Both the position numbers and the translations under genes were made by a program. Source: Atractiella rhizophila (Eukaryota). Taken from it: 64,000 nucleotides of DNA. The stretch lies in assembly GCA_021432655.1 (NCBI GenBank), contig MU271293.1, positions 1 to 64,000 on the forward strand. Reading direction: 5' to 3'. The notes under the pieces are model-generated. The model was not told the DNA's origin, searched no databases, and was given only the letters and a program-made list of their open reading frames with translations. How positions within the stretch are numbered: position 1 is the first letter of the stretch; each line of letters begins with the position of its first letter. Positions 19,501-54,400 of this stretch are shown piece by piece.

Positions 19501-19647
19501 CACTCCGCCCTCGCTCCCTCCTCCATCCTGTGCCGAAGAGACGGTTGAAGGGCTAGGATAGGAAGATAAGAGCCAGAGTAGGGAGCCTACGCTGGCTGTA
19601 TTGGTTGTGAAGTGGAGGAGGGACGAAGAGACGAGTGGTAAATCCAT
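16519..19647 (-). CDS. Multi-pass membrane protein with C-terminal nucleotide-diphospho-sugar transferase (GT77-like) domain
   Basis: About 10 hydrophobic segments in the N-terminal region, a Ser-rich linker, one more TM, then VLCLD, VVFADGD (DxD), WDLQIQNE..VNIGFF, WDQDHVN and LHMTCC motifs. Confidence 0.72.
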
Positions 19648-20068
19648 TTCTGCCTCCAAAGTCGTCGATCACGGCGAGACGTGTCCAGCGTTTTCGAAAG
19701 CCCACGGTTACAGTGCCGTAGAAAGCATTGGAGAGTGGTCAGGACGTCAGGACGTCAGGGATGAGTGCTCGATGACTTGATTGCTAAACTGCAAAATGTA
19801 GCGTTGATTGTCTGTGGAAAGCGGTCCCGAACAAAATCTATGATGAGCGCGAGATTCATTTCGTAATGGTTAGTCAAGACAAATGCTGCAGCTTAATGCA
19901 AGGAAATTATGTGGGGGTCTGTTTCACTCGTTCGCTGTGTACGAAAAATGAGCATGACAGTCTTGCATCCTAGTTGTATAGCTCCAAAAAGCGTCTGACA
20001 CGAGCGCACAGTAAATGTCCATTCCCTTCCCTCCATCCTACTCTGCTTCCTTACCTACCGGCTCTTCT

Positions 20069-20401
20069 TCAATGCTTATCAGTGTACGGGACCTGGTAAG
20101 GGGACGAGTATGGTCCATCGTCATCAGCCCTCTCCAAATCGTCCTTCTCATCCCCATAATGCTCCTTCCTCTCCCCAGTGACCAATCCGGTCCTGGAGCT
20201 ATTAGCGCCAGGGTTCATAATGGGGTGATAGCTAGGCATGGGACCTGACGGTGTCGCAGGGACGCGATCACCAGAGACGGAGGAACGGGGTTGATTGCCG
20301 AACAAGGTGCTGGTCGGGAAGCCGCGGGAGGTCTGAAGCGCCTTGTAGGAGGTCTCTTCGAGTTGGCGGACGTAGGAACGGGTGATGTGGATGAGGTAGA
20401 A
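20069..20401 (-). pseudogene. Duplicate 3' fragment of the tetraspanin-like gene (probably allelic/assembly copy)
   Basis: Encodes YLIHITRSYVRQLEE...PYTDKH, identical in protein to 21970-22302; cut at the poly-A run. Confidence 0.6.
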
Positions 20402-20428
20402 AAAAAAAAAAAAAAAAAAAAAAAAAAA
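20400..20428. repeat. 29-nt poly-A run at duplication junction (possible masked scaffold gap)
   Basis: A29 sits exactly between the two repeat units. Confidence 0.9.
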
Positions 20429-21556
20429 CACTTCTGAGCCTACTCGATATTTGGGATTGTGTGAAAGGATGGGAACTGCGAGTGAAAGACAGAACGGTTA
20501 GTGTGTAGATGGTGAAGCTGCCCATGGCGAACCCTGTGACTGAAGCCAAGAAGGAGGAAGAGAGTCGCAGGTATGTAAGAATAACGAGCGTTGAGAGTGA
20601 AGAGAGGGGAGGTAGTAGCTGACTGTATCCCAAGTCGGAGAGAGATACATATGTCACTCTTGAAGCCAAGCTGGAAAGAACATAGGTTCCCATCAAAACG
20701 CCGTCATGGAGGGAAAGGCGAAAAATGAAGCTGTTGAGGGATGGCCGCTCGAATGACAGAGAGAGGAGAAAGGCTGTACATGCTGCCGTCTTCGTTCGCC
20801 TCAATTAGCTTTGTATCCGCGCTATAGGGAAAAAAGATGAGAGGAGCAATCTCACATACAACCGCGCTTCTTCCTCTGAGTCCATCTGCTTTGCTCCACC
20901 TTACCAGCCCAAATCCAACGACGCGCATTCCGAAGTTGGAAAAGAAGACCTTGAATGCTTCTTGAGAGAGTGAGCTTGGGATTTGGAGGATCAAGAGGGC
21001 GACAGCGAGGAGGGAGAGACGAGAAAGAGAGGTGGGGAGTGGCAGAGAGTGGACGAGGGAGAGAAGTAACAGGAGAGGAGGCTGCACCACCAAACATCAG
21101 CTTCGTTCGGCCTCAAACTATTGTCCATCATGATATGGTCTTATATATATTCACAGATGTTTTGCTAGCAAGCGAAGACCCAATTGCAAGACAAAGAGCA
21201 AAACCCACCTCAACAGCCAAAATAGCAGCATTTCCCTCCGAACTTGCTCCCAAGCTCCACAACGACAGAACAGCGCCAATCCCAGCAAGGAAGCCAACAA
21301 TGAGACCCAATACACCCTCCACCTTCTGTTCCACAGCCATGTACACGTCCTTTTGCCTGCTAAAAGCCCATGCAGTCAAAGTAATTACCCCAAATAACAG
21401 AGCAATTGGCACTCCGCCCTCGCTTCCTCCTCCATCCTGTGCCGAAGAAACGGTTGAAGGGCGAGCATAAGAAGATAAGAGCCAGAGTAGGGAGCCTACG
21501 CTGGCTGTATTGGTTGTGAAGTGGAGGAGGGACGAAGAGACGAGCGGCAAATCCAT
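20428..21556 (-). pseudogene. Duplicate 5' fragment of the multi-TM/GT77-like gene (probably allelic/assembly copy)
   Basis: MDLPLVSSSLLHF... to ...QISSRLRS, with introns retained and several amino-acid differences from 18518-19647; truncated at the poly-A run. Confidence 0.6.
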
Positions 21557-21969
21557 TTCTGCCTCCAAAGTCGTCGATTACGCGAGACGTGTCCAGCGTT
21601 TTCGAAAGCCCACAGTTACAGTGCCGTAGAAAGCATTGGAGAGTGGTCAGGACGTCAGGGATGAGTACTCGATGACTTGATTGCTAAACTGCAAAATGTA
21701 GCGTTGATTGTCTATGGAAAGCGGTCCCGAACACAGTCTATGATGAGCGCGAGATACTGAACGTAATGGGTTAGTCAAGACAAATGCTGCAGCTTAATGC
21801 AAGGAAATTATGTGGGTGTCTGTTTCACTCGTTCGCTGTGTACGAAAAATGAGCATGACAGTCTTGCATCCTAGTTGTATAGCTACAAAAAGCGTCTGAC
21901 ACGAGCGCACAGTAAAAGTCCATTCCCTTCCGTCCATCCTACTCTGCTTCCTTACCTGCCAGCTCTTCT

Positions 21970-22994
21970 TCAATGCTTATCGGTGTACGGGACCTGGTAA
22001 GGGGACGAGTACGGTCCATCGTCATCAGCCCTCTCCAAATCGTCCTTCTCATCGCCATAATGCTCCTTCCTCTCCCCAGTGACCAATCCGGTCCTGGAGC
22101 TATTAGCGCCAGGGTTCATAATGGGGTGATAGCTAGGCATCGGACCTGACGGTGTAGCAGGGACGCGATCACCAGAGACGGAGGAACGGGGTTGATTGCC
22201 GAACAAGGTGCTGGTCGGGAAGCCGCGGGAGGTTTGAAGCGCCTTGTAGGAGGTCTCTTCGAGTTGTCGGACGTAGGAACGGGTGATGTGGATGAGGTAG
22301 AATTGGATGAAGATTTGGACGATGAAGACGGCGAGGAAGATGTAGCGGTTGGTGGAGGACAGGTCGTGGCAAATGTCGTCGGCATTGTCGACCTTGTCGA
22401 GCGCCTTCAAGCTGCACCACACTCAGCTCTGTACAGATTGCTAAGATGGTGACAAGCACAAAACTTACCAGTCACGTTCGATCTTGTCACGGTTAGTGAA
22501 CAGGAAAACAATGTAGAAGACGCCAGTAGCGATGTAAACTCCCAATTGGTACTTTTCAACCACAAAATGTCAACCACAGCCATATGCCAAGAATGAAAGA
22601 AAATGCTTACAGTTTGAGCCCAAGCAAACGCCTTCACGAGCCGCCTGTTCCTGAAGATGGAGCCGAAGAATCCGAGCAAGGAGAGCAATGAACAGATGGC
22701 AGCGATTGATCCATACACAATTGCTGGTATGAGGATGCTTTTCGGTGGGCTATCCAGACCTGTCACCGACACAAAATGAAACCTTCGCTTGGCGGGTAGG
22801 CAAGCAACGCACGTCGAAGCTGGAAAAATATTCCAAAGGCTGTCAAGGCATTACCCAAGAATCCGAACAGGGATAGGATAAACACTCCAAATCGGACGGG
22901 GAGACTGTTCCATCCCACATTTCCTCTCAACACCGTTTCCATTGATACCAACAAAGGAAGGAGAGGCGCACCAAAACAGAAAGTGTCTACTCAT
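21970..22994 (-). CDS. Tetraspanin-like four-TM membrane protein
   Basis: Spliced start MSRHFLFC|LPVRFGVFILS, LLGFFGSIFRNRRLVKAF, Cys-containing loop (DDICHD), fourth TM YIFLAVFIVQIFIQFYLIHI. Confidence 0.65.
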
Positions 22995-24384
22995 TTTCGT
23001 AATGTATTCGGAGGGAAAATGAAGTCGTAAGGGGGGTTAGAGGGTGCTGGTTCGTGAGAGAAATGGATGGAGGAGGTACGGATATCCTCTTGGTCCTTTT
23101 ATGTTGAGAGTTACAGCCGCGTCCTAAGTAATTACCCCCGAACTGCGAAAGCTCCGTGGTCGTATTTTCCAAACGTACTGTGCGCCAGCGGATTCCTGAC
23201 TATGCACAGCCAAGAACTTTAAAGGTCAGCTCACAACTCCTTCGACACGGATATCGAGCTAAGTTATGGCGTGGCAGCTGAAGAACGCCTTTGCATCGAT
23301 TTACACAAGTCCACAATCACTACTTCCTGTGCCCGTAGTTTCGAGGCATGAAAGACTTGGCTTTTCTGCACATGGGCAGGAGGTTCCTTTACTAGTAGGA
23401 ACTGTATGATCGTGATGAAGAAGTCAACCAACTTCTCTGAGCTAGCCCACGTTAACATCTCTTCACGTGCGAGAAGTTATCATATTCAGTCCTAGATTTT
23501 CTTCTCTGAGTTCTCTCCATGAAAGAAACGAGAGGAGCCATTCAACGAGGATGTGTCCTAAGAAAAGAACTCTCCTCAATAGTGCCTGTGCGGGTTTACA
23601 CTCTCCTTGTTGTTCTTGGACTTTCATTTGCAACTATTTCAGTTCAAATAGCTTCAGTGGCGGGCGATGTTGCACTATGGTTAAAATTCAGAATAGATTT
23701 CAATGCAATCACCAGCCCTAAGTTACGCTGAGTAGAGGAGAGAGGTTTTTCAAACGGCAGAATCAGACGATTCGACCCAGACAGGCCCAAAAGAAGAGAA
23801 TCCCGAGACAACGCTGAGTCTATTAGAGGTAGAGGGTTAGATTTGAAAGTCGCACAAATCTGAAAGGCAGAGACGAAGGAAAAATCCAAAGTGGGAAGGA
23901 GAAAGAATAAAAAGGAACAAAGTTGGTTTGGGAGGAGAGGTGGAGGTGGAGGGAATAAATGCGCGTATCGTCCTTCACCAACGACTATCTGAACTTCTAT
24001 CGGAAAGCAGTCTATTCATACAACGAAAATCGAACTGTTAAACTGGATGTGAGTGGAAATAAGGAGGAGAATGGGTCGGAGATGCATCATGCAGGCTTGA
24101 GGAGGATGGGACACTAAATTCGATGGAGAAGAGAAGAAACCGGCAAAACACCCTCCAATCAAGCACTCCAAGGCATCCATTTGATTTGGGTCGATTTGAA
24201 AATCAGACAAAGTACAGAGCTACGGATAATGGAGGCAAGAGAGGCTAGAAGAGAAATCCGAATCGTTCGTGGTTCGGTAGGTGGGTGAATGGGATTGAGA
24301 TTGGAGAGGATGAATGATAAGATGAGGCACGGAATGCTTCGTGTGGATCGAGTGAATGAGATGGTGGTCGATGAAGTGGGTCAT

Positions 24385-25199
24385 TTATGAAATGGTGCAT
24401 TTGGACTCCTGTGGTTGTTGGTCCGGATTGAGCTCTTTCTCCATTTCCTGAACTATGAACTCAAAGATCCTGTTCACGTTCTCGCTCGTTTTGGCCGACG
24501 TTTCGATAAAAGGACAATGCAACTTTTTAGCCAGCTCCTGTCCTTGCTCGGGCGATACTTGTCTGTTCAACCGAGTGCCGGCAACGTCAGTGCCGTTTCA
24601 CTTACCAGATGAGGTGGCGAAAAAGTGCTCACCGAGCCTGATTGAGGTCGCACTTGTTTCCGACGAGGATCATGGGGAAAGAATCGCGCCCGGTGAAGTC
24701 TGAAATCTTCTGTTTGATGAGTTGGGCGACTTTGAAAGAATTCGGGTTGTCCACTGCATAGCACATTATCCAACCATGGAAACCGACCGCCTGTCGATTC
24801 TGAAGAATCGTATACTCATCCTACATCACTCGGTTCAGCATCTCTGCATATTTCACGAGCCGAATACATACATGCCCAGCCGTGTCGTAAATCTCCAACG
24901 CATAATCCTGACCCTTATACTTGATAGTCTTATTCAAAGTTTGTTCGATTGTTGGGTAATAATTATCGACGAAGAGACCTTCTACGAATCTTCCAGAAAT
25001 GGAGGATTTGCCTGCCGACGCAGAGGACAAACAAATCACGCATCAGCATGCCGCCACGACCACAATCCCGAAAGAGGAGGAACAAGTCATGAGCCGACTC
25101 ACCGACTGCTCTCGAGCCCATAATAGCGATTCTCCTCGTTCTAGGTCCAATAGGCTTTCCAGACGGCGTAAGTCTCGGTTTTTCTTCGACTCCAGGCAT
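24385..25199 (-). CDS. RHB1: Rheb small GTPase
   Basis: G1 GSRAVGKSS with the Rheb-type Arg, effector YYPTIE, G3 DTAGH|DEY, G4 GNKCDL, G5 ETSAK, CaaX CTIS. Confidence 0.92.
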
Positions 25200-26082
25200 A
25201 TTGAACAATCTTCACTCGCAAAAGCTCAAAAATCGACGTTTCAAATCGTGCGGTGCGGTTGTTATGAGGTCGTCTGAGGAGCTTGGAAAAGGAAGAGTAG
25301 GGGAAGAAAGGGTTTATGAGGGGGAGAGGAGCGTCGAAGTATAGATGGGAGATGAGATGGTTTGGGAGAGATATCGATGGAGGCGTCGTCGTTTTCGTTG
25401 CAAAGTTCGAGGCGGAAGAGGCGCAAAAAAGCGGGCAGGACCCCCGGATCTGAGCATGTACGTACATTCGACCTTATCTCGGTTATCGTCCATTCATCCA
25501 CAATCTTTTCATCTCCGCCAGGCAATTGGAATCTGAATTCCAAAGAACTTCTGAATTCTTTCATTTCTTCTCATTTTGGCTGAGCTTGGGCAAGGATGGA
25601 GTGCAATTGGGCACTCGAATACCTCAAACTGTCACAGATAAGCAATTCACTCGCCGATCATGTCAACGTCTGCTTCGAACTCTGTCCCCGGGACGTCTTT
25701 TGGAAACTTATCGCTGTTTCTGTTTCTGAGACCCCCTTCTTGGGATTGACGTGAAGATGAGGAAACATCGCTTCGAATCTATCAGTCGATGGAAAGGTTA
25801 ACAAGATTACAGATTACGAGATGAATCGATGCCCGGGTCTGCAAGATTAAGGAACCCATGTCGGGAAAGCGAGGAACGTGAGAGTCGGGAGAGCGACAAG
25901 GAGGATAGGTTCTGACCAGCTGATAGGTGCTAGAGCAGTAGACCGTTTGTGTACATTTATTGGATAATACATTTCACAACCAATACTTGCTTAGTACTAT
26001 AGAGAATATCACATTCGCCCAAGTCCACGTTCTCATCCACAATCTTTTTCTTTCAAGTCTTCCATGATAGAACAAAAACGAC

Positions 26083-27591
26083 CTAAGCGCCTCTATCCAC
26101 CCTCCGATTGATACCTCCAATGAGAGTCTATTCCCAATAAAATCACATCAAAACTCGAAAGTGTTTTGGACAATTGAAGACAGACCTTGATAATGAAGTC
26201 TCCAGTAATATGTCCAGGATACATAGTACAATCAACCATGTCCCTCTTGAGTCCGTGAGTCTGTTTCAACTCATCATCAAGGCTTCTCAAGAACTCAGTC
26301 GCTTCTGGATCGTTGCCGATTTGCACAAACTGTTCAAACCAATATACGTCAGCAACAATAGAAAGAAAATGCGTCAGGATGAGGTGCGAGAAGGGAGCGA
26401 GGCAAGGTGCAAGGTGAAGGTGAGACACGTAGGGTGACATACTTGAATGCCAAGCTGTGTGAGTGGGGCGTGGATGAGGTCTAGTCGCTCTGCAAAGCCA
26501 GCCAGTGCGTAGTTGAGAGTATCAGGGTCGTCTGCTGCTCCATCTTCATTCCCAAATCAACGTACGTCACAAAAAGTAGGAGGGTAACAGGTGGGAAACA
26601 CAAACCGGTGATGATTATCAGATTGAGGTTCTTGACGGGATGTCCTCCTGTCTTCTTGGCGTACTCCACCGCATCTACGTAAGGTCCGAGGATCTCCTCG
26701 ACTTTCACCTCTGTCGCTGTTTCCCCCACCCAAGCAGAAGCAATGTGGATGATGAGCCAAGAGACGTGGATTCGAGTAAAAGAGGGTAGCCACTAACGCG
26801 TTGATGCACCGATTGGACGGACTTGAGAGAAGAGTTGAGAGACGGCTTGGTGTGAGCGAACGGATTGGAGGTTCATGGGTGAATTTAAAAAGTAGAGGTC
26901 GATCCCATCGTCCTACGAAAGACATACATGAATACTCGACAGTGAAATCGTTAATGCACTGAAAGAAGAGAGATGGCGAACATCTGCACACCATGCGTGA
27001 ATAATAAGCACTCGTTTTGGGTATGGATGGAAGAGACTTACCGTATTGAATGACTTTAGCTACTACACCATCTATCGCTTGTCTAACTTCCTGCTTCTCT
27101 CTCAGTCAGACCTCTCACTCCATCCCCAAATTAGAACTGGAGATCGACGCACGTCCCAATAAGGATCCATGCTGGCAGAATCATCGACAAGGATAACGGT
27201 GTCATATCGCTTCACTATCCCACACAACATCCGTAGAAAACAATGCATCAAACTAACGCTCCACACCCACATGCAGTTCCAAGAGCAAAAACGCACGCGT
27301 AGCCAACTGATCCTCTCCCAATCTACTCGCTCCCCTCTGCACACTCGCACCCTGTGGAGGAGGTCCACCAGCAGCAACAGGGGGAGGATAAGCCTGTGAT
27401 CCCTGAGGCGGATACTGCTGACTACCAGCTGGCGGATATGCGCCCCCTGCGCTCGTCGGAGACTGAGGATAGGGGGTATTATGCTGCATGGTATAAGCGG
27501 GCGGGGGAGGGCCAGAGCGAGAATCGAAGGAGTCTTCGACGGCTGGACGACGCATCGACATCTTGGGATTGTTAGAGTCAGATTTGGACAT
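26083..27591 (-). CDS. Fungal vWA-domain protein with Pro/Tyr-rich N-terminus
   Basis: YDTVILVDDSASM (MIDAS), DGIDLYFLN, LIIITDG, FVQIGND...LDDEL...RDMVDC, ends TLIGGINRRVDRGA*; start ATG tentative. Confidence 0.85.
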
Positions 27592-27817
27592 GGACTTGGT
27601 CGTCTTTTCTTGTCCGCTGGGCTGGAAGATCTTCGATGGCGGGATCCGTGTGGCGAAGATTGGAACCGAGCCAAAAGTGGACAATGACGCACTGCGTCGT
27701 CCTGCGCCATCCCACGCGGTTCCCCAAACTTACGTCATACCATCCATATAAGAGTGTCCATTTCAGCAGCTCTCCCACACCAACAGCTATTACTATCAAA
27801 GCAACTATTTCGCCAAA

Positions 27818-28576
27818 ATGTCATCTACTAAGCTATACGGCGTACCTACCTCGTCCGACTCTTCCCTCGCCAAAGCAGTCGAAAACGCCAACCTCCCTCC
27901 CGATCACAACTCTGCAAACTTGTTCACTTTCTCCCTGTCCGCATGGCTCGCCATACTCTCTCTTCCTATGCTACTCTTTCCCAGGTTCCTCGCACTCGCA
28001 CTCGGAGGAAGCAACCTTTTAACGAGCGAAATCAACGTTGGAGGGGATAAGGAAGGGAAGGAGGCAGGCAAAACCGCAAGCTTCATTCGCGAACTAAACG
28101 GTACGTTCAACAACTTGTCCTAAAGACCAATAACTAATATGTTCCACTTTGAAGACCTAGAAAAGTTCTTCGCGGCCCTGACAGGCTTTGCCTTCCTCTC
28201 ACTCTCCCTCCTCCTCGTCCTCCAAACCGGCGCCGTGCCCGTGACATCATCCATGTCCCGTCCCTCAGACTCCGAGCACGCGAAGCACCTCCGCACTCCA
28301 ACCGTCACTGTCCTCACCCTATTCCTCGGTGCCATCAGCTGGCTAAGCTGGAGAGAGGATATGAAGGTCTTTGGCGGCATCAATGGAGCTTTCGCCTTTT
28401 GGGCCTTCTGGGTCGTCCTGTTCTCGAATGAGAAGAGGAAGAGGAGGGTCGAGGGTGGAAAGGACGATAAACTCAGCAGCTTCCCTTTCAAGAATAAGGT
28501 ATGCCGTTTCTCTCTCGTTCGACTGTAATGAGGGTTCATGTGTTTGTAGGTGGCGCATGCGAGGAAGGAGCAGTGA
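27818..28576 (+). CDS. Conserved fungal membrane protein of unknown function (about 4 TM)
   Basis: Three exons; hydrophobic segments, LLFPRF and C-terminal SSFPFKNK|VAHARKEQ*. Confidence 0.7.
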
Positions 28577-28858
28577 ATTTGGTCAGAAAACGAAAATGGA
28601 CTGTGAATAAGCTGAATTTGTGTATATTGATTGAATTTGCTGAAGAATCAGTCATATTTCGACCTTTCGTCAAAATAACCTGTTACATCGACGTCAAGTC
28701 CCATCACGCTTCCATGTTTTGTACTTTGAAAGGCAGACGATGCGCCGGGAAAGATGCTAGATTCAATCTGGAAACTCTTGTACCTACATGTGCCAACCAT
28801 CGCGTCTTCTCGTCTTCTAGGGCAGCACGCCGTGAATTGACCGAACTCGACACGCCAT

Positions 28859-28885
28859 GACTCCCCCAACAACTTCTTTATAAAA
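28859..28885 (+). promoter_or_regulatory. Putative core promoter: GACTCCCC motif + TATAAAA ~50 nt upstream of arrestin-like ATG
   Basis: TATAAAA at 28879-28885; GACTCCCC at 28859-28866 recurs upstream of the paralogue (48944-48951, minus strand). Confidence 0.4.
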
Positions 28886-28933
28886 GGCAGCCCTTTCTTC
28901 ACACTGTTCAGCGTTCAGCAAAAGTTTCGCACA

Positions 28934-30331
28934 ATGCTTTCCCTCTGGTCATCTCCAAGGCTGTCGCTGTCTTTGTTGGGACAAAAGCAGAGACAAGACC
29001 AATAATGTATCATCCAAGCTTCTCCATCATCCGCAGGTGAAGAGTGCCTTCTAAGGGGAACTTTGACCCTGCAAATACCTCGAAGCAGTAGGAGCGTGAG
29101 AGTAGATGCTTCGGAGGTGAAGATACAAAATGTGGCTGAGGTGTTGTGGCCAGACAGAGCGTGGGAGAAGAGAGTACTCTACGACCGAACGGTCACGACA
29201 ATAACGAGAGAAGGAAGTGTTGGAGGAGGAGAAAAGATTTGGGAGTTCCTTATTGCTCTACCCAGTACGGTAGCCACTTCTGAGGAGGGGAAATGGGGAC
29301 GGGTACGACTTGAAGTGTGTTGCTTCTTCTTTCTTGTCAAGGCTATAGCTGAAGACAATTCTTTGATGGGAAAAGATCACAGGCTCGGTATCCTATCAGA
29401 CACCTCTGGGAGTCACTCGCATCGAAAGCACCCTGCCCATCTTCGCAGTGCTCAATCCATATGGCAACGAAGATCCTCGTAGCACCTCGTTGGCAGTTCA
29501 CGACCACACCCCAGACCTCGGAGTGCGCAATTGTTCCTGCTCTTCTTTCGAAAGAGCTTACCATTGGAGGACAGGTGTTTGATGTAAACTATTCTTGTCG
29601 GCTTCTCACAGTCGGCTCTCCTCTCCTCGTCACGTTCTCACTTCCTCACCTTCCGTCCTCCCGCACCGTGCGCATTCAACGCTTGGAAGTTGGAGTCGTG
29701 CAACAGACGACACTGTGTACGAAAGAAGGCAAAGAATCGAAGATGAAGGAGGAAAGGCTCGTACTGTTGGAGATGAACCGGTCTTCGGCTCCTTCCACCG
29801 CGCCTGGTTTTGGGAATGAAAGGATGTTGAAGCTTCGGACGGCGGATGAAGGAGGTGGAAGCGAAGCTTACATTGCGCAGATCGGAGAGGGGGAGCATTG
29901 GAACCATTCTTCGGTCTTTAGGTACATATCCTAATTTTCATGCTCTCTCTCAACACAACAGTTGATCGCAAACCAGGCTTCCAGATCACCACGCCTTATC
30001 TCCATCAACACATCAAACTTCAAGCACACCAATTCGCCACTCTCACTCTCTCGAACTAACGCTCACTTATTCCCTCGCCGCTTGTCCAGAATCTTGGGGT
30101 CAATGGAAGACGCGCCGTCTTGTGAATCGAAAGGAGGTCTTCATCGCTTCCTGCCGGTTGAGAGAAGAAGATGTGAGCTTACCTGCTTACGACAGCATCC
30201 TGCCTGCTAGTGAATGTGGTCGTAGATGGAATGTGGGGTGTGTTTGTGAGATGAAGGCTGAGGAGTGGGATAGTTCGAACATGGACCATGGGATGGAAGG
30301 TGTGGACAGACCCAAGTGGGAGGTTATGTAA
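28934..30331 (+). CDS. Arrestin-fold (alpha-arrestin-like) protein, subfamily A, with in-frame TAA at codon 24
   Basis: Four exons splice cleanly; LLRGTL, NVAEV, WEFLIALP..GKWGRVR, LTVGS, PST...TPIRHSH, LPAY, CVC, RPKWE. Only lesion found: TAA at 29003-29005. Confidence 0.75.
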
Positions 30332-30763
30332 TCTGTTCTGTACGAAATATTGGAGCCCCATTGCCTTGTTGAAATAAACGCGTTAGCTGTGACATTACCG
30401 TTCACTGATTCCAAGTTTGCCTGCTCGAGAAGGGAAGGAACATGTGCTGAACTGAAGGTCTTCGACGAAAGGAATTATAGAAGCAGAGGCAAAGAACGAT
30501 GCATTCCACATTGACCCAAGGCAAAAGGAGACTTATTTGGAGAGACGGAAGTCTTGCGACCGTACAATACGTACTGGAAAGTCATATATACAAAGAATTC
30601 TGTATATACGTTCAAACTTGGCCGGTAAAGAGTCCGTTCTAGCTATTTGAACCGCGAAACTGACTGTGCTAGTCCATCGCTTCAGACTTTGTGACAAAAG
30701 AATGAAGGGTATAAAGAGTGTGAGTAACCAAGATGATCGGATGTTGTTCTCAGAAGCAAATGT

Positions 30764-36815
<6,052 letters not shown>

Positions 36816-43516: not shown

Positions 43517-45081
43517 ATGTCCAAGCTTATTCCTCAAATTTCTCTCGCCTCTCCCACCCTTTCCCTGTCGATCACACATCCCATCGTCTTCGTTCGTCCC
43601 AATGCGAATCCTTCCCTCCCTACCCACGACCCAATATTCAGCGGCACCGTTTCTCTCAACCTCCCGAAGGAACGACAGCTGAAGGAGCTTCGCGTTCGAC
43701 TGAAGAATGTGGCAGACGTTGCCTTCGGTGTCCCAATGGATCCGAGCATTACCAACTTTGTGTTAATGGAGAAGGAGCTGAAGATCGACTTGGGCGGCGC
43801 GGACGGAGTGAAGCTCTCAAAAGGAGTTCATACGTGCGCAGTCCCCTTTCTTCCCTCCGCCGAAGCCTGTGGTTCTGACAGCCTTCCTATATTGCATTAG
43901 ATGGGAGTTCTCGTTCATCGTTCCATCTTCTATAGCTCCTTATGAGCGCTGCAATTTCGGGAGAGTCTACTCCCGGATCTACGCCAGAGCTTCGTTCCCT
44001 GGACTTGGGAGGAAGCTCGAGGCTTCCACCAAAATTGACGTAGTCGCCAATCCAATGCAGGAGGCAGAAACACCAGGTCAGTTTGATTTACGGATTGACG
44101 ACTTCAACCGAGACATCGGCGTACGTTTCCCTCTCATATCTCTGAATAGGGTTGTTCTGATAAGACAGGAGTAGATATTCAGGTTACATTACGAAAGCCC
44201 ACATTTCACAGTCGCCGGACTCTTGCATTTCCATTTCTCCATTCCCGAACCTCCGCAGCGATTAACGTTTGAGAAACTCGAGCTGTTCATCCTCCAACAA
44301 CACACTTTGCGACGGCCAAGGAAGTCAGATAAGGAACCTGAGAGTCCACCTGTCATCCCTCCTCCTCAACGACGAAAGATTTTCGCGGCGGAGGGTGGCG
44401 AGATACATCGAGGATGGAAACTCAGTCGTTGGATTCGGTATGCTCTGTCTCCGTCTCTCGTTCCTCCCTGATCCATGACGTTCGCAATGCGGATAGTTTA
44501 CCAAACTCAAACATTTTACGATGCACAACCCAACCTGGAACGCAAACCCCAATCAGCAACTCACACGAACTCTCGTTTGAATTCACTTACCGCGTTCCTG
44601 ATCCCAAAGATCCTAGCAAATATGAGACGAAGATATTAACGGTGAAGAAGGACGTGACTTTACTTTCCGTGAGTCTCAAGTCTTCCTTTCGCCATACATG
44701 CTCAATCTAACCATACGCGTACAGTGCTTATTCATGATCGACAACGTCCTCACCCCTCCTTACGAAGGCTGCTGCTGCGCCGTCCAACCAGCAACCTTAA
44801 AACCGTACGGCGGGCCATTTTGCACCGTCCAATGTTTCTGTACCGTTTCAACTGAGGAGATGATGAAAGGAAAGGAAGCGACTTTGGCAGAGGAAGAGTT
44901 CGATGGCGAGCTCGAAAGTTTGCCCGCGGGAAGAAGGAGGAAGTGGGAGTGGGAGAATGGGATAGAGAGCACTCAGGCGTCTCCTTTAGGTTCCCCGAGC
45001 GGTTCGCCAATGGTTTCGTTGGGAAGCTTACATAGAAGCGTAACGACAGAAAGTACTGGATCGAGGTCGAGTGAATCTTGA
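43517..45081 (+). CDS. Arrestin-fold protein, subfamily B
   Basis: LSLSITHPIVFVRP..FSGTVSLNLP..WEFSFIVPSSIAPYERCNFGRVY..VVANP..FTVAGLL..TTQPGTQTPI..TPPY..CFC..RRKWE; intact. Confidence 0.8.
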
Positions 45082-45237
45082 TTTTGTTGATTGATCTTGC
45101 TTATCATGGTTCTTTTCTGGGAATATTGGAGTTTATGTCACTTGTGTGCATGTATTACTTAGGACAGATACCTAATGCCTTATAATCACACGTTTTCCAT
45201 CTGAGAAACTGAATCAGTTGCAATAATCCATCGAGCT

Positions 45238-46738
45238 TCATGCATCCACATTTTCCACTCCATCTCCCTCCGCCTCCTCTGGCCACTGATTCTGCCATTT
45301 CGCTCTCAATATGACCTCTCCATTAGTTCCGTTTTGACTGTCGGAATTTATTGAGTCCATGAAGAACTTGTTCAGGTCTGATTTGAGCAGTGAAGTGAAG
45401 CTCGTCCCACACTGGCACTCCATCGAACAATTAGGACGCTGTGGTCTTCCGGTTCTATCGATGCCAGTCGACTCTGTATCCTTTATTGATGTATATGACG
45501 GTAGCGTGAGTGATTCCATTAGACAACAACACTTTCGAGCCGAGTAAGTTGGTTTTACTTAGGAAATACGGGAGCAAAGAACATACGGAGGAGATCACAA
45601 CTTTCTTCGTCAGTGAAAGGGTCTGAACTTCGCCAAACAATGCACCATCTTCATCAAGCAGCTGGTACATGACCTGGAAGAGTATGGAAGTGAATGAGCG
45701 AATTGGAGTTATAGTTCCTGGCAGAGTGGTGGCTCGTATAAAGTCATCATCAGGCAACCTAATTACATTTGTATTTAATTAAAATCAAGCTGCAAAGAAA
45801 ATCACTCCCTACCTCGCAAGTTCTTTGAATCCCCAACTCTGTCCTTTCTTTAGGGTCCATCCATCCTTCCGCCCTTCCTCACCTCTTTTCTGAAATAATC
45901 CGCGCTTGACAGGCTTTACTTGGATAGGACCCGTCTGCTCATTTTGCAGATCGTGAAGTTCGAATGATTGCAGAATGGCGCATTCGATAATACTGATACG
46001 AAGGGCATGAGGAAGGGAATCAAAGGAGAAATCGACGTGGAGCAGGCCAGCAACTGTGAGGTGAGGAGAAGATAATTTTAAGCTGAACAGCTACACCCAG
46101 TTTAATTAGTAAAGTGCCACTCTGGAAACTTGCAGAGAGCGTCAAACCCCCAAATCAGACGTGAAGTCTCCAATGCTGACATTCGCCGTAACTGGCGCTT
46201 CCCCTTCTGGATCTGGGTTTGCAATGATTTCGATGGGATCACTAGCTGAGAGGTTGGAGTTGAACCCTGGACATTTAGCGGTTGCTGTCACCTATCGTGT
46301 TTTCAGCGCCAGCCCGTGAATGACGGGTAGGAGACAAACCTTGGACCAAATACGCCCATATCTACAACGTTCGTAGGGAGCAGCACTGGAAGGAATGATG
46401 AAGGAGAACACGAATCTATCCTTTTGTCAATGTCCTGCAACAATTCCAGCGGAAAGGACGGACGAATGGTCCCCTTTCTCCAATTCTCGCCCAATTTCAA
46501 TCTTCAGCTCCTTTTCTAGCAAGGGTACCGTAAAGGTATTTTTATCCGGAAAGGAGAGAGAAGAAAAGGTTTTAAGGACCACGACTACCTCCTTCACCTT
46601 TCGAGGTTGCGAAAGATGCAAGTCGACGTTTCCTTGGATGACGGGATCGTTCGTCGGCGCACTTGGGTCGAGGGAAGGAGTGGGATGCACGAAGACAACG
46701 TTTGGGTAGACAGCGAGCTTTAATGTGTTAGAAGGCAT
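45238..46738 (-). CDS. Arrestin-fold protein, subfamily B
   Basis: LKLAVYPNVVFVHP..FSFIIPSSAAPYERCRYGRIW..IIANP..LTVAGLL..TTLPGTITPI..ESLTLPSY..CQCG..RAKWQ; intact after splicing. Confidence 0.8.
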
Positions 46739-47428
46739 ATCGTTAGTCTCCCTGATCAAAATTGTCGCGCTGACAGAGAAAGCGAATCGTGGTAGGGTGG
46801 GTTTTCTTCCTTCAATGCCGAGTCAGATGTATTGATGACGGAACGGTGCGGCTTTGTGGCGTCTTCGCTCAAAGCTTTTCAACATCGCGTTATATTAAGC
46901 ACATCGTTCTTCTTGCTTCTCCGTTTAAGTTATGTAGCTGCTTTGAGGTTCTCCCTGAGCATGCCTCAATAGGTGTGAAGGTTTGGCTTGCGAAGACTGC
47001 TCTCGTGCATTTTAATCCGTCACTTTGTGCAGTGTCTAATACCATTATGTACAAGGTTGCAACTCTGACACAACTTCTCAATAACAAGCACTATTATCTC
47101 CAGCGCTATCATGCGCCACAACTGTGCTACTGGTTTGTTCGCACGTTTGAACTTCCGTTGGCCAAGAAGATACGATTTGTAAAATTCAGAACAAACGGAA
47201 CCAAACGAAACAAGAACGTGTTTTCCCACCTGACACAGTAAATAAATGTCTGACGTCTCCATCCTCCATCCAACGCAGCATTCAGTTCTCAAGGCACTTA
47301 AGTCTGGCATCTTCTTGAAAGGCTGACCTGGCACTTAGAGACCATATTAATTGTGTAACCTGCATCAGAACGTGGATAGATTCATTCTCAGTCAATTCAT
47401 CCCATATAACACACAAATCACTGTTTAG

Positions 47429-48856
47429 CTATTCATCTTCCCATTTCGCTCTCATCCTTCCTCCGTCCCTTCCATGCATTATGCTTTGTTGCACTTGCTC
47501 CTTTTCCATGGCACATGCGCAGGCACAAGTGGTCGTTCCTATCAGTTCTCCGTTCCTGTCGTGCGGAGGGAATCTGGAATAAGGAGGCAAAGTCAAGATG
47601 CTCTCGCTCAATCGACACGAAGCGAGAAAACACTCTTTCTTGTTGACCAGACGGCGCGTTTTCCATTCTTCCGTTCCTCCTCTCTGAGACGTCAAGATCG
47701 AGTAGGTGAGCCTGAGTTCGAAAGCGTGAGACAGACGGATTGGCGTGACTGTATTGGCGTGCGTGGAGGGTGAAAGGCTATCGTGCCTTGAGAGCCTGTA
47801 GTTGGACTAATATTAGAGAAGTAAAACCGAACAATAGGAAACTACGCACTGGACAACACGACTATATTCCCATTCTTCTCCTTCCGCAAGCAAGGCGATT
47901 GCTCCGCAGCCCATCCCATCCCTCTTCCTCCCAATTCCAAGGCCCTGCCCGATCCTACTCCCGCCTGGAGTAGATGCAGGCGATACACATTTATTCTCGA
48001 TTAGGACGAAGCGATCTTCTGTCTTCTCCTTTCCCTCTCCGTCCACGCTTTCCAGCACCACTTGTTGCAAGAGAGCAAGAGTCAAAGTCTCGATGCGAAC
48101 CCTCGCTCTTATTCCGTCAACGGTCCTGGGAAGGCACGGGAGTTTGAAAGCGAAAAGAATACAGGATCCAACGGTGAGATTAGGAGATGAATAGGTTACG
48201 TTGAAAACCTATAGAATGAACGATCAGTCACATTGTCCAGCAGAACAGGTCATTGCTCACCCCCAAATCATCAGTGTGATCCGTGACAAATGTTAAAGAC
48301 GCTGGTACAGCCTCTCCGTGCGGATGAGGATTGACGATCGCATGAAGAGGAAGGCCAACGTCAATGCGGGCTTCGCCGAAGGGACCTTCATACGAAGCAC
48401 TCGCGGTGATCTGTTTATTACATTGTTGCACTCATCAGTTCCAGTTCCATAGATGCATGAAAAGGTATAACTCACCTCCAGCCTCACACGTCCCCATCTC
48501 CCATCTTCGCTTGCCGCCAAATTCGCAGGCAGCGCGAAAATGAACTCAAAACCATGTCTTCCTCCCAATTCCACCCCACCTGCGCCATCCCACTTGATGT
48601 TCCTCTCATAGAGGACCCTTCTTTCCCACGCCTTCTCGGAGAACAAGACCTCCGCTACGTTCTTCACAGCGAGCTGAACGCCATGAACTTTCTTTTGCTT
48701 TCCCAGAAAAGACAGCAAAAGTGTTCCACGGAGGAGTGTTTCTTCACAAGCAGACGATGGAAGAGGGTGCAGGATCGTTAATCCTCACCCGTGCGCCATG
48801 TTGGATTGATTGAGGAGAGAAATGGACAGTTGAGGAGGCGAGAATAGCGCGTGCAT
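47429..48856 (-). CDS. Arrestin-fold protein, subfamily A, with in-frame TGA at codon 24
   Basis: Same three intron positions as 28934-30331; LLRGTL, NVAEV, FEFIFALP..GRWGRVRLE, LTVGS, WKTRRLVN, LPPY, CAC, RAKWE. Only lesion found: TGA at 48787-48785. Confidence 0.75.
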
Positions 48857-50011
48857 ATTCGCTCGTTTTCAGTCTTCGAGTGCTTGTTAGGTGAGGCTGA
48901 CGAACGTCAAGGTAAGCGACAAGGCTTTTTTATGCCTGTACATGGGGAGTCTGCTCGACTCAGCCAAATGACAAAGCAGCCTCTTGACCCCACAGCGTCC
49001 CACCTGACAGAACATTCTATGCACCACTCCAAGGATTGCAAGAACAAACCCACACGCAGCCGCACAGGAATGGAGCTTGAGCCGGTCTGACAAATTTCTG
49101 CATTTCATTTGTTTGCCACCAGCTTTCGTCATCATGAAGGGGATGGGGATAGAGATGAGAAATATGGCTTCATGGAAACGAACCTTAAACCGAGTTGAAT
49201 CACAAGAAATATGCCTTTGAGGCAAGGGAAGGCGTTCTTAGCGAGTTATGGGGGGACGTGATTGGTAGGCCGAGGTGGTGATCATGCATTGGGTTATGCT
49301 TGAAAATGAAATCTCCATTTGGTCGAGATTTCTTCACAATTAAAGATGCGTCCTGGTATGATAAATATTCTTTTCTGCCACTAAGGCTGCTAAGGTCCTA
49401 AATCCTGCCAAGAAGCGTAGGTTGGTGATCACCAAAATTATGGCAATGAACTTCGGACAATTATTACCAGCGGGAACAAATTGCAAACTGCAGCCTGTAG
49501 CATTCAAGTTACCAATTTGTTAAGCGATCTTATCACCTCAATACCAGTCAAGATCTGCTCAAGACCAACCCTTTCAAGATAGGGAGGTGTCTTGTAGACG
49601 CGTGGTCTGGGTATGAAAGCGCTTTGATTGAGACTTATTTGGGTTCAATGATGACCTTCTGCGGCCGAGCAGGACTACTAATACGACATCTCAAGCGAAA
49701 AGTGGTAACGTTGATAGCCGGGAACTGCTTCCCGGACATTCTTGCTGCTTCAACAGTTTCTGGCTCCGCACAGAAATAACACTGTTGTGGTAGCGTAACT
49801 AGTATTTGTGGGTCCTTCGACTTTCGTTGCCCAGCAGTTCCTTTAGGACCATCAGTTGTCGAATAACCGGTAGCAGCCGGTATGAGTAGGCGAAGTGGAG
49901 GGTAGCAGGTATACAAAAAGTCATGGAAGACACATTTTGTCATGAAAGGGTGAACTCTTCGGGTTCTCTTTTCACCGGACACACTCGTTGCAAGCCAAAA
50001 AGGGAGACAAC

Positions 50012-51469
50012 ATGTCATCTCAAGGTTCAATACTCAGCGTGCATCTGTATCCGAATGTCATCTTTGTTCATCCTTCTCCTTCCCCGACTCAAACCCCAAC
50101 AAATGATTCGCTGGTACAAGGCGTCGTGAAACTGATGCTGTCCAAGCCAAGAATGTTCAAAGAATTGATGGTGATGTTTGAGATTTCGTCTACCCTCTCT
50201 TTCCCGAACAAATCGCCTTCCTGCTTTGTCCCGATAATCAAAAAGGAACTTAAGATTGACATGGGAAAAGTATTCGAAGCAGGCGATCATTCGTAAGTAA
50301 TTTTCAGACAGTTTTCTCGCTTAATTTTGGAGTAGCTTTACTTTTGCATTCATTGTCCCCGCAAGTGCATCTCCTTATGAGCAGTGCTGTTTTGGGCACA
50401 TATGGTCCAGCGCAAGTTCCTTCTCTTGCCAAACAAGATGTACAGTGACGACAGATGTGCAGGTGACAGCGGTAGCAAAAAGTTCTGGCTTCAGCTCCAA
50501 TCTGTCAGCTTCGCAGAAACTTCACATTATAGCAAATCCGAGTCCTGAGGGAGAACCCCCGAATCCGACAAGTATCAGGATGGGGGAGCTACTAGACGAT
50601 TTAGGTGTTTGTCACCCTTTGTTGTTTCCAAGGCGAATCGTATGTTGACCCCGTATTTAGTTGTTCACGCTCGCCATATCTTCTCCTAATCTCACAGTTG
50701 CCGGACTTCTTCACATCGATTTCTCCCTTCATTGCCTCCTTCAAGCATTTCGAGTGGACCGTGTTGAATGTTTCATTCTCCAAAAGTTCGAGCTGCACGA
50801 TCTGAGGAGAAGAGACGGTAAGGGCGACCGAGCAGCGGTGGCAGAGGTGAGACAGTCACTGTTTATAAAGAAGAGAGGAATCGAAGATTATGCAGAGTGG
50901 GTAGCTGAAGCGGGGAGCGAGTGGATTTTCAAAGAGTGGATCCAGTTTGTTCTGTTCATCTGGTTCACCAAATTCTACTCAGAAACTTGACAGGTTACCG
51001 AACGATAAAGTGCTGCGTCCTTCCACACTGGAGGGGACAGACACTCCAATACACGTTTCCTCCACCATCGTCTTCCAGCTCACATATCATTTGTGTAACG
51101 AAAGTGGGACTTTCGGAGGTAGAGCGCTGATGCTTTCTTTGAAGCAAAAAGTCGACATCTCTTCTGTACGTTCGCTTCCCTACATAGCGGAGGCTGACGC
51201 TTTTAAAGTGCTGCTGCCTGATGGAATCTCTTACCCTCCCATCCTACCACGCTTCCACGTCTACATCCTCTTCAATAACAACCGACGTTTGGAGCTCTTC
51301 CCACCGGTCAATAAAATGTTCATGTGGAACTTCTATCGTGTCCCTCCTCAAGTCAGACTTGAACAAGTCATTCATCGATTCCCTCAACTCGGATACTGCA
51401 GGAACAAAAGAGAGTGCTCTTCGGCCTAAATGGGAGCAAGAACGAGATGGAGGGAATGGATGCAGATAA
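50012..51469 (+). CDS. Arrestin-fold protein, subfamily B (closest to 45238-46738)
   Basis: LSVHLYPNVIFVHP..FAFIVPASASPYEQCCFGHIW..IIANP..LTVAGLL..PSTLEGTDTPI..CCCLMESLTLPSY..CSCG..RPKWE; one GC-AG intron. Confidence 0.8.
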
Positions 51470-54400
51470 AGAAAGGACTGAAGAAGCGCGCGAATGCGTC
51501 GAACGTTGTGACGTTGTTGTGACAAAGGCTACTGTACTAAGGTATATTCATTTCTGTGTAGAACTAAACTGTATAATGTATAATGTTGCTGTAATCTTGA
51601 TTTGGTCTCACATCTGCAACTTGTGTTATTTGTACTACTTGCTCTTTCCAAGCGAGAACTATCTTTGTTGGATTTTACGACTGCCACCTTTGCTCTTACC
51701 ATTGTGAAATGCCCTATTCTCTGAAAACGCGAGCCTCGCGGCTCGCTATGTAACGCTACATGCCTACAGACGGAAATATATCTCGAACTGGATGACCGAA
51801 TATCTATATAGGTTTTGGTAGCAGTCTCGCTAAAATTTAGTCCAGGGCGTACGGTCCGCTGTATTACGCAGTCCTTTGTGTTCCTGCAATCTCACAGTAT
51901 GATCCACTTCCACGCAGTACTTGATGTGTTCAAAAGCCTCTCAGTTTGATTTCAACACCACTTCTAATAACGTTGGCCCATGTCTGTGCAGAGTAAGCCG
52001 GGCCACAGCGAAGCGGTCAATGACCTCTGACGGTCAAGCTTGTGGCTTCATGACCGTCATCACAGCTGGAGCAGCTCGAATTTACGACACTCCTTCTGAG
52101 AACTCATAGAAAGGCGGAACGGTAAGTGACTACTACTACCTCAGCACGTTTCTTCAAATGGTGAGGAGAAATATAATTGGAGGAGAGGTACACCTTGCAC
52201 ATCTGAAGCTCTGAAGCTCCTTTGGGATGAGGTGCTTTGAGACAAAGGCACGACTTTATGCTTACACTTCTTTGTTGTCACAGACTTCTACGCCTTCATG
52301 GAATGAAGACACACTGTATTTTTCCTAGGTCTCGCTGCAAGCACACCTACTCCGCGCACTCCTGATCCACCTAGTTCTCTCAGCTTCATTCAATCAGACG
52401 GATAGATGCTAGCTTATGGTAGTGAGCTGCAAAGGAAGAAAGAAAAATTCAGGGATATGGCGAGAACTAGGAATGAGAACCCTAAATTTTTTTCATGACA
52501 AGGAGATCTGAATAATGCACGTGGCGGCTGAAGGTAAATCTGAAATTGCCAACCAACGCCAACCTTGGAATTTGCATTTTACGTCGAGGTCAATCAGTCA
52601 ACGTAGCATTATTTTCATTATATTGGAACTAGACATATTGAAACATGAAGGCTAATACGCGCGGAAGAGGTGCTGCTCGGCTGCTGAAGGCACTTGCTCG
52701 TTTATTTGACGCTTCCTGGTGAGCAGGTATGTTCATGACGACACTTGCTATACTCTTAACCTACTTCCGATTTCATTCAGTAGATTGGCAGGGTACTTTG
52801 AACTCTCTGTGCATTTATCTGCCTCAGGTGTATCAAATCAGGCTGGAATGCAAGAAACTTGTTGGCGGATAAGCCTTTTCATTGAATGTCTTCACCAGTT
52901 TAAGCCATACAGCTACCTCAACAAATGACTCCGGGCTCTACACTCGCCTTCACCCGCTTCTGCTGCTGTGAGCAGCCTCTTTGCTAGAGTCACACATCTG
53001 TACTGTACCGAAGACTGTCTCAAGTCGTGGAGGTCTCGCAAATGGCCAAGTAGCCTGGGTATTGTCTGTATGTGCAAGGTGATGAATTTGAAGTCCTATC
53101 GAGGGACGAAAAGGAGGAGGAAAGTGGAGGCCGCGGTAGCCGTGGACGTCTTTCTTTCTTTCTTCCGCCTCCCGCGGTATCCTTGATTCACGAAGCGTGA
53201 AATTGGAGCGTTGCATGAGTGCTCGCAATGGTGCTGCTCACTTGTTGGGGACAGATCGCTGGCTCTGCAAAGGTGTCCAAGGGAAAGGGGCTGAAGCTGT
53301 TTATGACCGACGGTGACAGCCCCTCCGCCTCCTCAGCCCACACCTCATATCCCTGTACTGCCAACGTAAAAGCGGACCTCAATGAGTGGAGCGGGCATAC
53401 CACCTTTGTTGTGGCGCTCGTTATGCATTGGAGATTGTCCAGGGGATGTCCCTTTGCTGTCAGTCTGTTGATTTATTGATTTGTTCACCTTTCGATCGTG
53501 AGTTCGTGATCGTGGCTGTTGGCCAAGGTTGTCCTTGTGCAATCATTAGGTCGCGTTGTGCTTCCCGTCCCTCGTTCACACATCGGTTGGATCAACATGA
53601 TACCAGTATAGATATGTCTCAAGTTGTACCGCCAACATGAGGTATACCGTACTTCGTCATCCTCCTTTTTACCACGAATCCTCCTTCCTCCAAACTTTCA
53701 CGTAATCCCACCGACGAACCAGTCTGTACTTGGACTCTCTGAAAGTTTTGCTGTGTTCCACCGGCGCATCCCGCTGAATGCAGTTGCACGTCTTGATCGA
53801 ACCGATCTAGTGTGTGCGGATGTTTGAGAGGAGATGGGCACCTTCCTGCGAAGTGTTGACTCCTGGGCATCCATCCTCGCTTACCCACGGCGCCACGGTA
53901 GAAGGCTCATTGTGCCCTGGACATCCAGTTGGAGTTCCACTGCGATCTGTATCAGCCCACTGCTGGAATCCTTTGGAATCTTCACCAAAGGATCTGAAAG
54001 TATGTTTCTGGAATCTAACCCACCATACAAATTCAGTGGAATTTAGAGACACTCAAATTAACCCGAGATGAGGGAGCTTCCAGGGAGTGAGCTGCATTTC
54101 ATCGTCAATACGACCTTGCCATGTTTCTTTTCTCACGTTCCCATCTTAGTTCCGGACCGATTCATGGGGCAGGACTGTGCTGCTTGATTTGGGTTGGACA
54201 GCTTTAGTACTTGGAAGAGATTATCGCTGTTAGGACTCGTACTGAGCTGTCCGTAACTCCGTTCATTTTGCGGTCGTACCTCACCCGAGATTTAAAGACG
54301 CGACTCTCTCAGCTTTGCTCTTGTCATCCCACTTCAGCTCATTAGAGTCACACCGGACTCCGTTTTGCATCACCACTACGCCCGATTCGAGGATCCTTCC

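Follow-up and report, generated by a model that had tools for sequence, protein, structure and literature searches.

Why should two genes that were duplicated long ago, and that are otherwise clean, each carry a stop codon at the same place near the start? The question is raised by a 64,000-nt stretch of contig MU271293.1 (the window) from Atractiella rhizophila, a root endophyte of the Pucciniomycotina. In the window, two putative alpha-arrestin-like genes, g1 on the forward strand and g2 on the reverse strand, each have an in-frame stop as codon 24, which is TAA (29003-29005) in g1 and TGA (48787-48785) in g2. A preliminary description of the window had reported both stops at these positions, which our reconstruction reproduces, and had proposed that they are selectively maintained and either bypassed or used conditionally. 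On the evidence given below, we tentatively favor, by a narrow margin and at somewhat less than even confidence, the explanation that the stop has been maintained and is bypassed during translation, with readthrough as the leading route; a chance coincidence of two recent nonsense alleles is almost as likely.

Two arrestin-like genes interrupted at codon 24

The models of g1 and g2 were rebuilt from three-frame translations and from the alignment of the two genes with each other (Table 1). Beyond the stop, the frame of the first 23 codons continues as CIIQASPSSAGEECLLRGTL... in g1 and as GLTILHPLPSSACEETLLRGTL... in g2. Exon 1 is 381 nt long in both genes and is followed by three introns at matching positions (61, 52, and 55 nt in g1; 65, 52, and 54 nt in g2), all six of which keep GT..AG boundaries. 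The spliced frame 0 of each gene contains only the internal and the terminal stop, and the other two frames contain 14 to 16 stops each; the remainder of both genes is intact, as had been described, without further stops or frameshifts. The absence of a nearby downstream start was likewise found: in both genes, the frame beyond the stop runs for more than 200 codons without ATG; the only starts there are the near-cognate codons ATC, ACG, and CTG. The deposited protein of g2 (P0002) agrees with the rebuilt model at every one of its residues 53 to 417.

Table 1. Coordinates of g1, g2, and the arrestin-like cluster in the window
Feature	Position	Strand	Details
g1 gene	28934-30331	+	exons 28934-29314, 29376-29522, 29575-29921, 29977-30331
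g1 codons 1-23, MLSLWSSPRLSLSLLGQKQRQDQ	28934..29002	+	arrestin beta-strand 1 and first part of the enlarged loop
g1 in-frame TAA, codon 24	29003..29005	+	ATG at 28934
g1 exon 1 remainder	29006..29314	+	103 codons in the frame of codons 1-23, without ATG
g1 exons 2-4	29376..30331	+	terminal TAA; LPAY motif
g2 gene	48856-47429	-	exons 48856-48476, 48410-48261, 48208-47850, 47795-47429
g2 codons 1-23, MHALFSPPQLSISLLNQSNMAHG	48788..48856	-	ATG at 48856
g2 in-frame TGA, codon 24	48785..48787	-	local hairpin, with the stop at its 5' foot
g2 remainder	47429..48784	-	rest of exon 1 (48784-48476), exons 2-4, three introns; terminal TAG; LPPY motif
Arrestin-like cluster	43517..51470 (end approximate)	.	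three stop-free paralogues, ATGs 43517 (+), 46738 (-), 50012 (+), and g2; by tblastn and alignment

When g2, the g1 exons, and the three distant stop-free proteins P0003 to P0005 were combined into a profile, it matched the N-domains of ARRDC3 (E value of 2.3e-7) and TXNIP (E value of 4.1e-4) in PDB. Against the Pfam family Arrestin_N, g1 and g2 score 17 to 18 bits, below the cut-off of 24.9, and P0005 scores 42 bits, above it. An LPxY motif lies near the C terminus of both gene products, and P0005 has LPQY; [L/P]PxY is the motif by which alpha-arrestins bind the WW domains of ubiquitin ligases. The family-invariant glycines are also kept in g1 and g2. The structure predicted for P0002 with AlphaFold2 is all-beta, but a mean predicted local distance difference test score of 52.2 and a predicted template modeling score of 0.42 make it too uncertain for a fold search. 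Judged by sequence, g1 and g2 are alpha-arrestin-like genes.

Detectable relatives are few. Among 1.84 billion representative proteins, a profile search returned five at an E value of <=0.001, namely, P0001 and P0002 from the same genome (the deposited models of g1 and g2) and the distant arrestins P0003 to P0005. Searched with the protein of g1 exon 1, the 21 candidates of similar length included only P0001, labelled as a partial hypothetical protein of A. rhizophila, with 99% identity over 57% of the query; none of the 599 longer candidates was a relative, and the 66-residue N terminus retrieved no candidate in the protein search. In metagenome contigs, peptide patterns matched 209 stretches, none of which was confirmed, and the DNA pattern adjoining the stop had no match. 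Within the window, g2 is one of four clustered arrestin-like genes whose orientations alternate, and g1 lies 19 kb from g2.

Coding constraint and the loop that holds the stop

The two genes were compared on either side of the stop. The proportions of synonymous (pS) and nonsynonymous (pN) sites that differ between g1 and g2 are 0.79 and 0.46 for codons 1 to 23, 0.76 and 0.38 for the rest of exon 1, and 0.79 and 0.39 for exons 2 to 4. Before the stop, identity at codon positions 1, 2, and 3 is 11, 15, and 6 of 23. After it, the stretch PSSAGEECLLRGTL (PSSA...RGTL, conserved as PSSAxEExLLRGTL) matches at 13 of 17 residues, with identities of 11, 14, and 5 of 17 at the three codon positions; read in the other two frames, the genes match at only 3 to 5 of 16 to 22 residues. 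Between the two genes, saturation of synonymous sites, together with the lower pN and the codon-position pattern, indicates that, during most of the period after a very old duplication, both parts were read by ribosomes in a common frame. The protein similarity claimed for both sides of the stop thus takes the form of a frame-0 coding signature before and after it. Since both sides have been under protein-level selection during most of that period, a stop that killed the ancestral gene is ruled out.

The position of the stop within the arrestin fold was taken from an alignment of g1 and g2 with six stop-free homologues (the three window paralogues and P0003 to P0005). As the preliminary description had it, the peptide before the stop matches a stop-free first strand; it is beta-strand 1 (xLSLSL) and aligns with strand 1 of all six homologues, and the residues just after the stop form strand 2. 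The turn between these strands has 2 to 3 residues in the six stop-free proteins and is longer by 8 alignment columns in g1 and g2, with the stop inside, which also upholds the claim of an insertion around the stop. In exon 1, g1 and g2 are 46% identical to each other and 17 to 29% identical to the other homologues. Because the insertion is limited to these two genes and their mutual identity exceeds that to all others, the enlarged turn is most simply read as a derived feature shared from their common ancestor.

The length difference between g1 and g2 that adjoins the stop is 6 nt and thus in frame, and the 23 codons before the stop align without gaps. The two-codon offset between the stops given by the preliminary description holds only for one placement of this difference: MAFFT opens the gap before the g1 stop, which produces the offset, but, as the 23 codons upstream contain no gap, it can be put after the stop just as well, and the stops then align. 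With one random nonsense hit per gene of about 410 codons, the same codon index would be reached by chance about once in 410, and the same loop of about 10 codons about once in 40. Given the number of windows scanned, such a positional coincidence is unlikely but not impossible.

Transcription and splicing of the stop region

Four public RNA runs (X1, X2, X4, and X8, with X4 being a soil metatranscriptome) were compared with positions 22400 to 30700, which include g1 and leave g2 outside. Part of g1 is present in all four runs, with contigs of X2, X4, and X8 on exons 3 and 4; g1 is transcribed. X1 behaves as the RNA of a relative, most of its contigs being 95 to 99% identical to the window (roughly 96%). 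One X1 contig spans approximately 28946 to 29027 and two span 28998 to 29210 (extents from the distances to the contig ends), all without a joint, indicating that the mRNA runs through the g1 stop region unspliced. In the same run, intron 2 is joined (29522>29575), intron 3 is marked by loose ends that agree with its junction (29922 and 29975), and neighboring genes are joined too; at 29084, 3 nt are deleted in frame in one haplotype. The listed X1 contigs retain intron 1 (29315-29375) at a depth of about 21, and one of them lacks 1 nt of it. The intron may be a detained one, the RNA may be unprocessed, or the spliced form could be among three unlisted joints.

The X1 relative also provides a measure of constraint on g1. 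Among 15 listed coding differences, 10 are synonymous (9 of 13 downstream of the stop), against a mean of 4.07 when the same substitution types are placed at random coding positions (P = 0.00125); the test rests on the 40 listed of 159 differing places. Several lesions or relaxed constraint, as expected of a pseudogene, were not found: each gene has one stop, no frameshift, and intact splice sites, and synonymous differences are in excess, a state that a very young pseudogene would share. The synonymous excess fits a gene that works despite the stop and fits equally well a stop younger than most of the divergence. As a separate observation, the X1 differences from the window at 22400 to 30700 include 39 A>G changes, compared with 14 T>C, 17 G>A, and 15 C>T, and the A>G sites at 22846, 23016, and 23022 are common to X1, X2, and X8; the excess could reflect private reference alleles, a strand-biased mutation pattern, or RNA-DNA differences.

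Excision of the stop from the genomic sequence was examined by enumerating all GT/GC-AG and AT-AC pairs that enclose it at a length of 15 to 200 nt divisible by 3. None of 63 candidates in g1 spares PSSAGEECLLRGTL. In g2, the conserved stretch is spared by 5 of 32, all of them AT-AC pairs of 30 to 90 nt with donors that depart from the U12-type consensus ATATCC. The earlier statement that no GT-AG intron removes the stop in frame while sparing the conserved residues is therefore borne out for g1 and g2. A GTGAGG donor overlapping the g2 stop looks good, but no in-frame acceptor follows before codon 78. For Ire1-type excision, inspection by eye found one CNGCNGN-like site in g1 (approximately 29031 to 29037), without an in-frame partner, and nothing comparable in g2.

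Upstream of both genes, GACTCCCC occurs 68 to 88 nt before the ATG and is followed by a TATA-like box, ATAAAA(G/A)GC (28859-28886 in g1; 48925-48951 on the reverse strand in g2). As a shared promoter element, GACTCCCC is not significant, an 8-mer common to two 130-nt promoters being expected by chance about 1 time in 5, and the window holds 3 copies compared with 3.09 expected.

The deposited protein models avoid both stops by other means (28934-29100 in g1; 48698-48943 in g2). P0001 starts at the ATG at 29005 in another frame, removes 29037 to 29088 (52 nt), and also uses a donor 12 nt upstream of the homology-supported one, so that the residues VRLE are lost. P0002 starts at an ATG upstream of the TATA-like box and loses first 32 nt and, after 39 out-of-frame residues, another 58 nt; its 32-nt intron is shorter than all six homology-supported introns (52 to 65 nt). 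These stop-avoiding introns join a nonconserved frame to the conserved one, and the g1 intron is unspliced in the X1 contigs. Because g1 and g2 show no conservation in these frames and the introns lie at nonhomologous positions, the deposited models appear to be work-arounds of the gene predictor.

A possible maintained stop and its alternatives

How, then, could both genes have kept their coding character? In the explanation that we favor, g1 and g2 would be working alpha-arrestin-like genes, probably encoding ubiquitin ligase adaptors, whose common ancestor gained, between beta-strands 1 and 2, a longer turn exposed at the surface, together with an in-frame stop. The stop would have been kept ever since, with TAA and TGA interchanged by a single transition without a sense intermediate. 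The mRNA would start some 20 to 50 nt upstream of the ATG, and the stop would not be spliced around; most ribosomes would terminate after a 23-residue peptide, and full-length arrestin would come only from the fraction that bypasses the stop. The simplest bypass would be readthrough by a near-cognate tRNA, which would place a variable residue in a tolerant loop, and the stop would act as a strong, possibly condition-dependent throttle on translation. We infer that the stop is ancestral and bypassed in this way; that it is selectively maintained is also what we infer, because no orthologue was seen at the stop site.

A maintained stop is favored because the stops share a codon index inside an insertion limited to g1 and g2, because TAA and TGA are one transition apart and never need to pass through a sense codon, and because an in-frame 6-nt indel adjoins the stop in genes that are otherwise clean, constrained, and expressed. 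As for the preliminary proposal of a maintained and bypassed stop, the coding signature on both sides, the lack of a conventional intron, the transcription of g1, and the mostly synonymous differences speak for it, but the leaky context and conserved RNA structure that might accompany bypass were not found.

Several observations weigh against a maintained stop. The stop contexts are CAA-UAA-U in g1 (UAA-UGU-AUC) and GGG-UGA-G in g2 (UGA-GGA-UUA), and neither matches a known leaky motif, as the preliminary description had already remarked of the classic ones; UAA is, moreover, generally the least leaky stop. Local RNA folds at the stops are unremarkable, with z values of -0.22 to -1.57 (-0.26 and -1.57 downstream of the stop) and none shared by g1 and g2, and the surroundings of the stop are not conserved between the two genes. 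Retention of intron 1 in X1 fits a poorly processed transcript. The synonymous test has the partial coverage and the double reading given above. Differences of X1 are listed only beyond about 31 nt from the contig ends, and positions 29003 to 29005 fall inside that zone in all three contigs, so the stop letters of the relative are hidden. Finally, no basidiomycete case of a start-proximal maintained stop was found in the literature searched.

A local hairpin, GGGUGAGGAUU-AAC-GAUCCUGCACCC, was observed in g2 (48765-48790, reverse strand); it starts one codon before the stop and appears in both fold windows. Its z values of -1.4 to -1.6 are not significant, and it has no counterpart in g1.

It is almost as likely as the explanation we favor that the stops are two young, independent nonsense alleles (incipient pseudogenes or strain-specific knock-outs) that coincide by chance, arising from CAA->TAA in g1 and from CGA or GGA->TGA in g2. 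Each stop is one substitution away from a plausible sense codon in a Q-rich or G-rich loop, exactly one lesion per gene is what very recent loss would leave, and the poor readthrough contexts without a conserved signal also point this way. The five-copy family is lineage specific and clustered, and gene loss is common in such families; the deposited annotation has no normal model for either gene, and intron 1 is retained in the RNA contigs. With some 250,000 windows scanned, a 1-in-400 coincidence can also arise. This account has to accept, however, that both stops fell on the same codon index in the only insertion limited to these two genes, and that g1 is transcribed in all four runs. Both alleles must, moreover, be recent, at less than about 1.7% neutral divergence, a rough estimate that assumes about 0.15 disabling changes per neutral substitution and asks for a 1.2-kb open reading frame (ORF) with three introns to stay clean at a probability of >5%; the X1 relative lies about 4 to 8% from g1.

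It is improbable that codons 1 to 23 are an upstream ORF (uORF), with ribosomes reinitiating at a near-cognate codon immediately behind the stop to produce an arrestin without strand 1. The length of 23 codons would permit reinitiation, and an in-frame ATC stands at homologous positions in both genes (29009-29011 in g1; codon 28 in g2), with A at -3 in each; g1 also has a UAAUG stop-start overlap, formed by the last A of the TAA and the ATG at 29005-29007. But that AUG opens an 11-codon out-of-frame ORF, the conserved frame offers no AUG for the distance given above, and AUC is a very weak initiator. What is conserved in the peptide before the stop is its character as strand 1 of an arrestin and not that of a peptide in its own right, and an in-frame 6-nt indel beside the stop would not be needed.

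Removal of the stop at the RNA level, whether through editing of a base (A-to-I for UGA, U-to-C for both UAA and UGA) or through a short excision of an unconventional kind, appears quite improbable. A single U-to-C change would in principle repair both stops, but such editing is not known to occur in the nuclear mRNA of fungi. A-to-I editing does not serve as the common route that had been suggested, since the TAA of g1 would need two such edits and the TGA of g2 alone would qualify. Nor does an excision find footing, given the lack of an in-frame intron with usable sites or of an in-frame CNGCNGN pair and the colinearity of the X1 contigs with the genome through the stop region. Precedents for editing do exist: one study reports A-to-I correction of premature stops in ascomycetes (PMC10776026), and another reports UGA>UGG changes in Microbotryum, a member of the same subphylum (PMC13608869). 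The Sordariomycete precedent invoked in the preliminary description does not carry over as such, the source fungus belonging to the Pucciniomycotina.

Base-call or assembly errors are a very improbable source of both stops: a 1,940-bp tandem copy at 99.9% identity elsewhere in the window could be an assembly artefact, but two stop-creating substitution errors would have to hit the same codon of genes 19 kb apart, the deposited protein models rest on the same letters, and the relative's contigs align from 28998 across the g1 site, where their differences are unlisted.

Other routes past the stop were considered and rejected. Ribosome hopping would find GGG-UGA-GGA in g2 and CAA-UAA followed by CAA 12 nt on in g1; the two are not parallel, and the residues skipped are conserved. 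A reassigned genetic code is contradicted by the terminal TAA of g1 and by the lack of any further in-frame TAA or TGA in g1 or g2. No tRNA gene, sought as a possible suppressor, lies within the window.

The two genes may be set beside known systems. Programmed readthrough of an internal stop is exemplified by kelch and headcase of Drosophila and by viral gag-pol and replicase genes. Like these, g1 and g2 have a single in-frame stop with same-frame coding constraint downstream, and the identity of the stop may change at a fixed position. Unlike them, they carry the stop 23 codons from the start, so that nearly the whole protein would depend on bypass; their contexts are not the known leaky ones, a conserved downstream structure is missing, and only two paralogues are compared. 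With regulatory uORFs that encode conserved peptides, such as the fungal arginine attenuator peptide of about 24 codons, the genes have in common that the 5' end of the mRNA bears a short ORF, fixed at 23 codons, which precedes the main coding region; they differ in that the peptide is the first beta-strand of the downstream domain, in frame with it, and in that the downstream ORF lacks an AUG. Compared with alpha-arrestins (ARRDC3, TXNIP, and the fungal arrestin-related trafficking adaptors), they share N-domain homology and an LPxY motif in the C-terminal part, whereas their sub-cut-off Arrestin_N scores, the enlarged stop-bearing beta1-beta2 turn, and the very small number of detectable relatives set them apart. 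The single-stop "pseudogenes" in Fusarium graminearum and in Neurospora crassa are likewise intact otherwise, constrained, and conditionally rescued (PMC10776026). There, however, UAG is edited to UGG, TAA serves as the "uneditable" control allele in Fusarium, and the setting is sexual development of filamentous ascomycetes as opposed to a member of the Pucciniomycotina (PMC10776026).

A more far-reaching version of the maintained stop is less likely than not: that it forms a heritable translational gate in two anciently duplicated basidiomycete alpha-arrestin genes, so that no adaptor is produced unless termination fails. This might result from readthrough, general or stress induced, from a natural suppressor tRNA, or from a correction of an undescribed U-to-C type. 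Such a gate would tie adaptor dosage to the state of the translation apparatus; leaving ascomycete A-to-I editing aside, no internal stop so close to the start and kept by evolution would have been described before in a fungal nuclear gene family. Control of genes by stop bypass has been documented mainly in viruses, insects, and, through RNA editing, a few ascomycetes. A maintained stop would mean that nearly all protein output of two regulators of membrane-protein turnover hinges on its bypass, and that "one-stop pseudogenes" in fungal annotations can be functional genes; gene predictors hide such genes behind invented out-of-frame starts and tiny introns, as they did at both loci. Were the stops young knock-outs, the case would be an ordinary one and would serve mainly as a warning about positional coincidences.

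The window contains further features outside the arrestin-like genes. A tandem direct repeat of 1,940 bp (30766-32705 and 32707-34646; 99.9% identity) carries duplicated ORFs on the reverse strand; either the duplication is very recent or the assembly is at fault. Another tandem pair (18518-20401 and 20428-22302; about 1.9 kb) is 95.4% identical. Seventeen other long ORFs in the window gave no Pfam match, and the ORF at 54892-55461 matches the fungal Zn(2)-Cys(6) binuclear cluster domain (E value of 9e-6).

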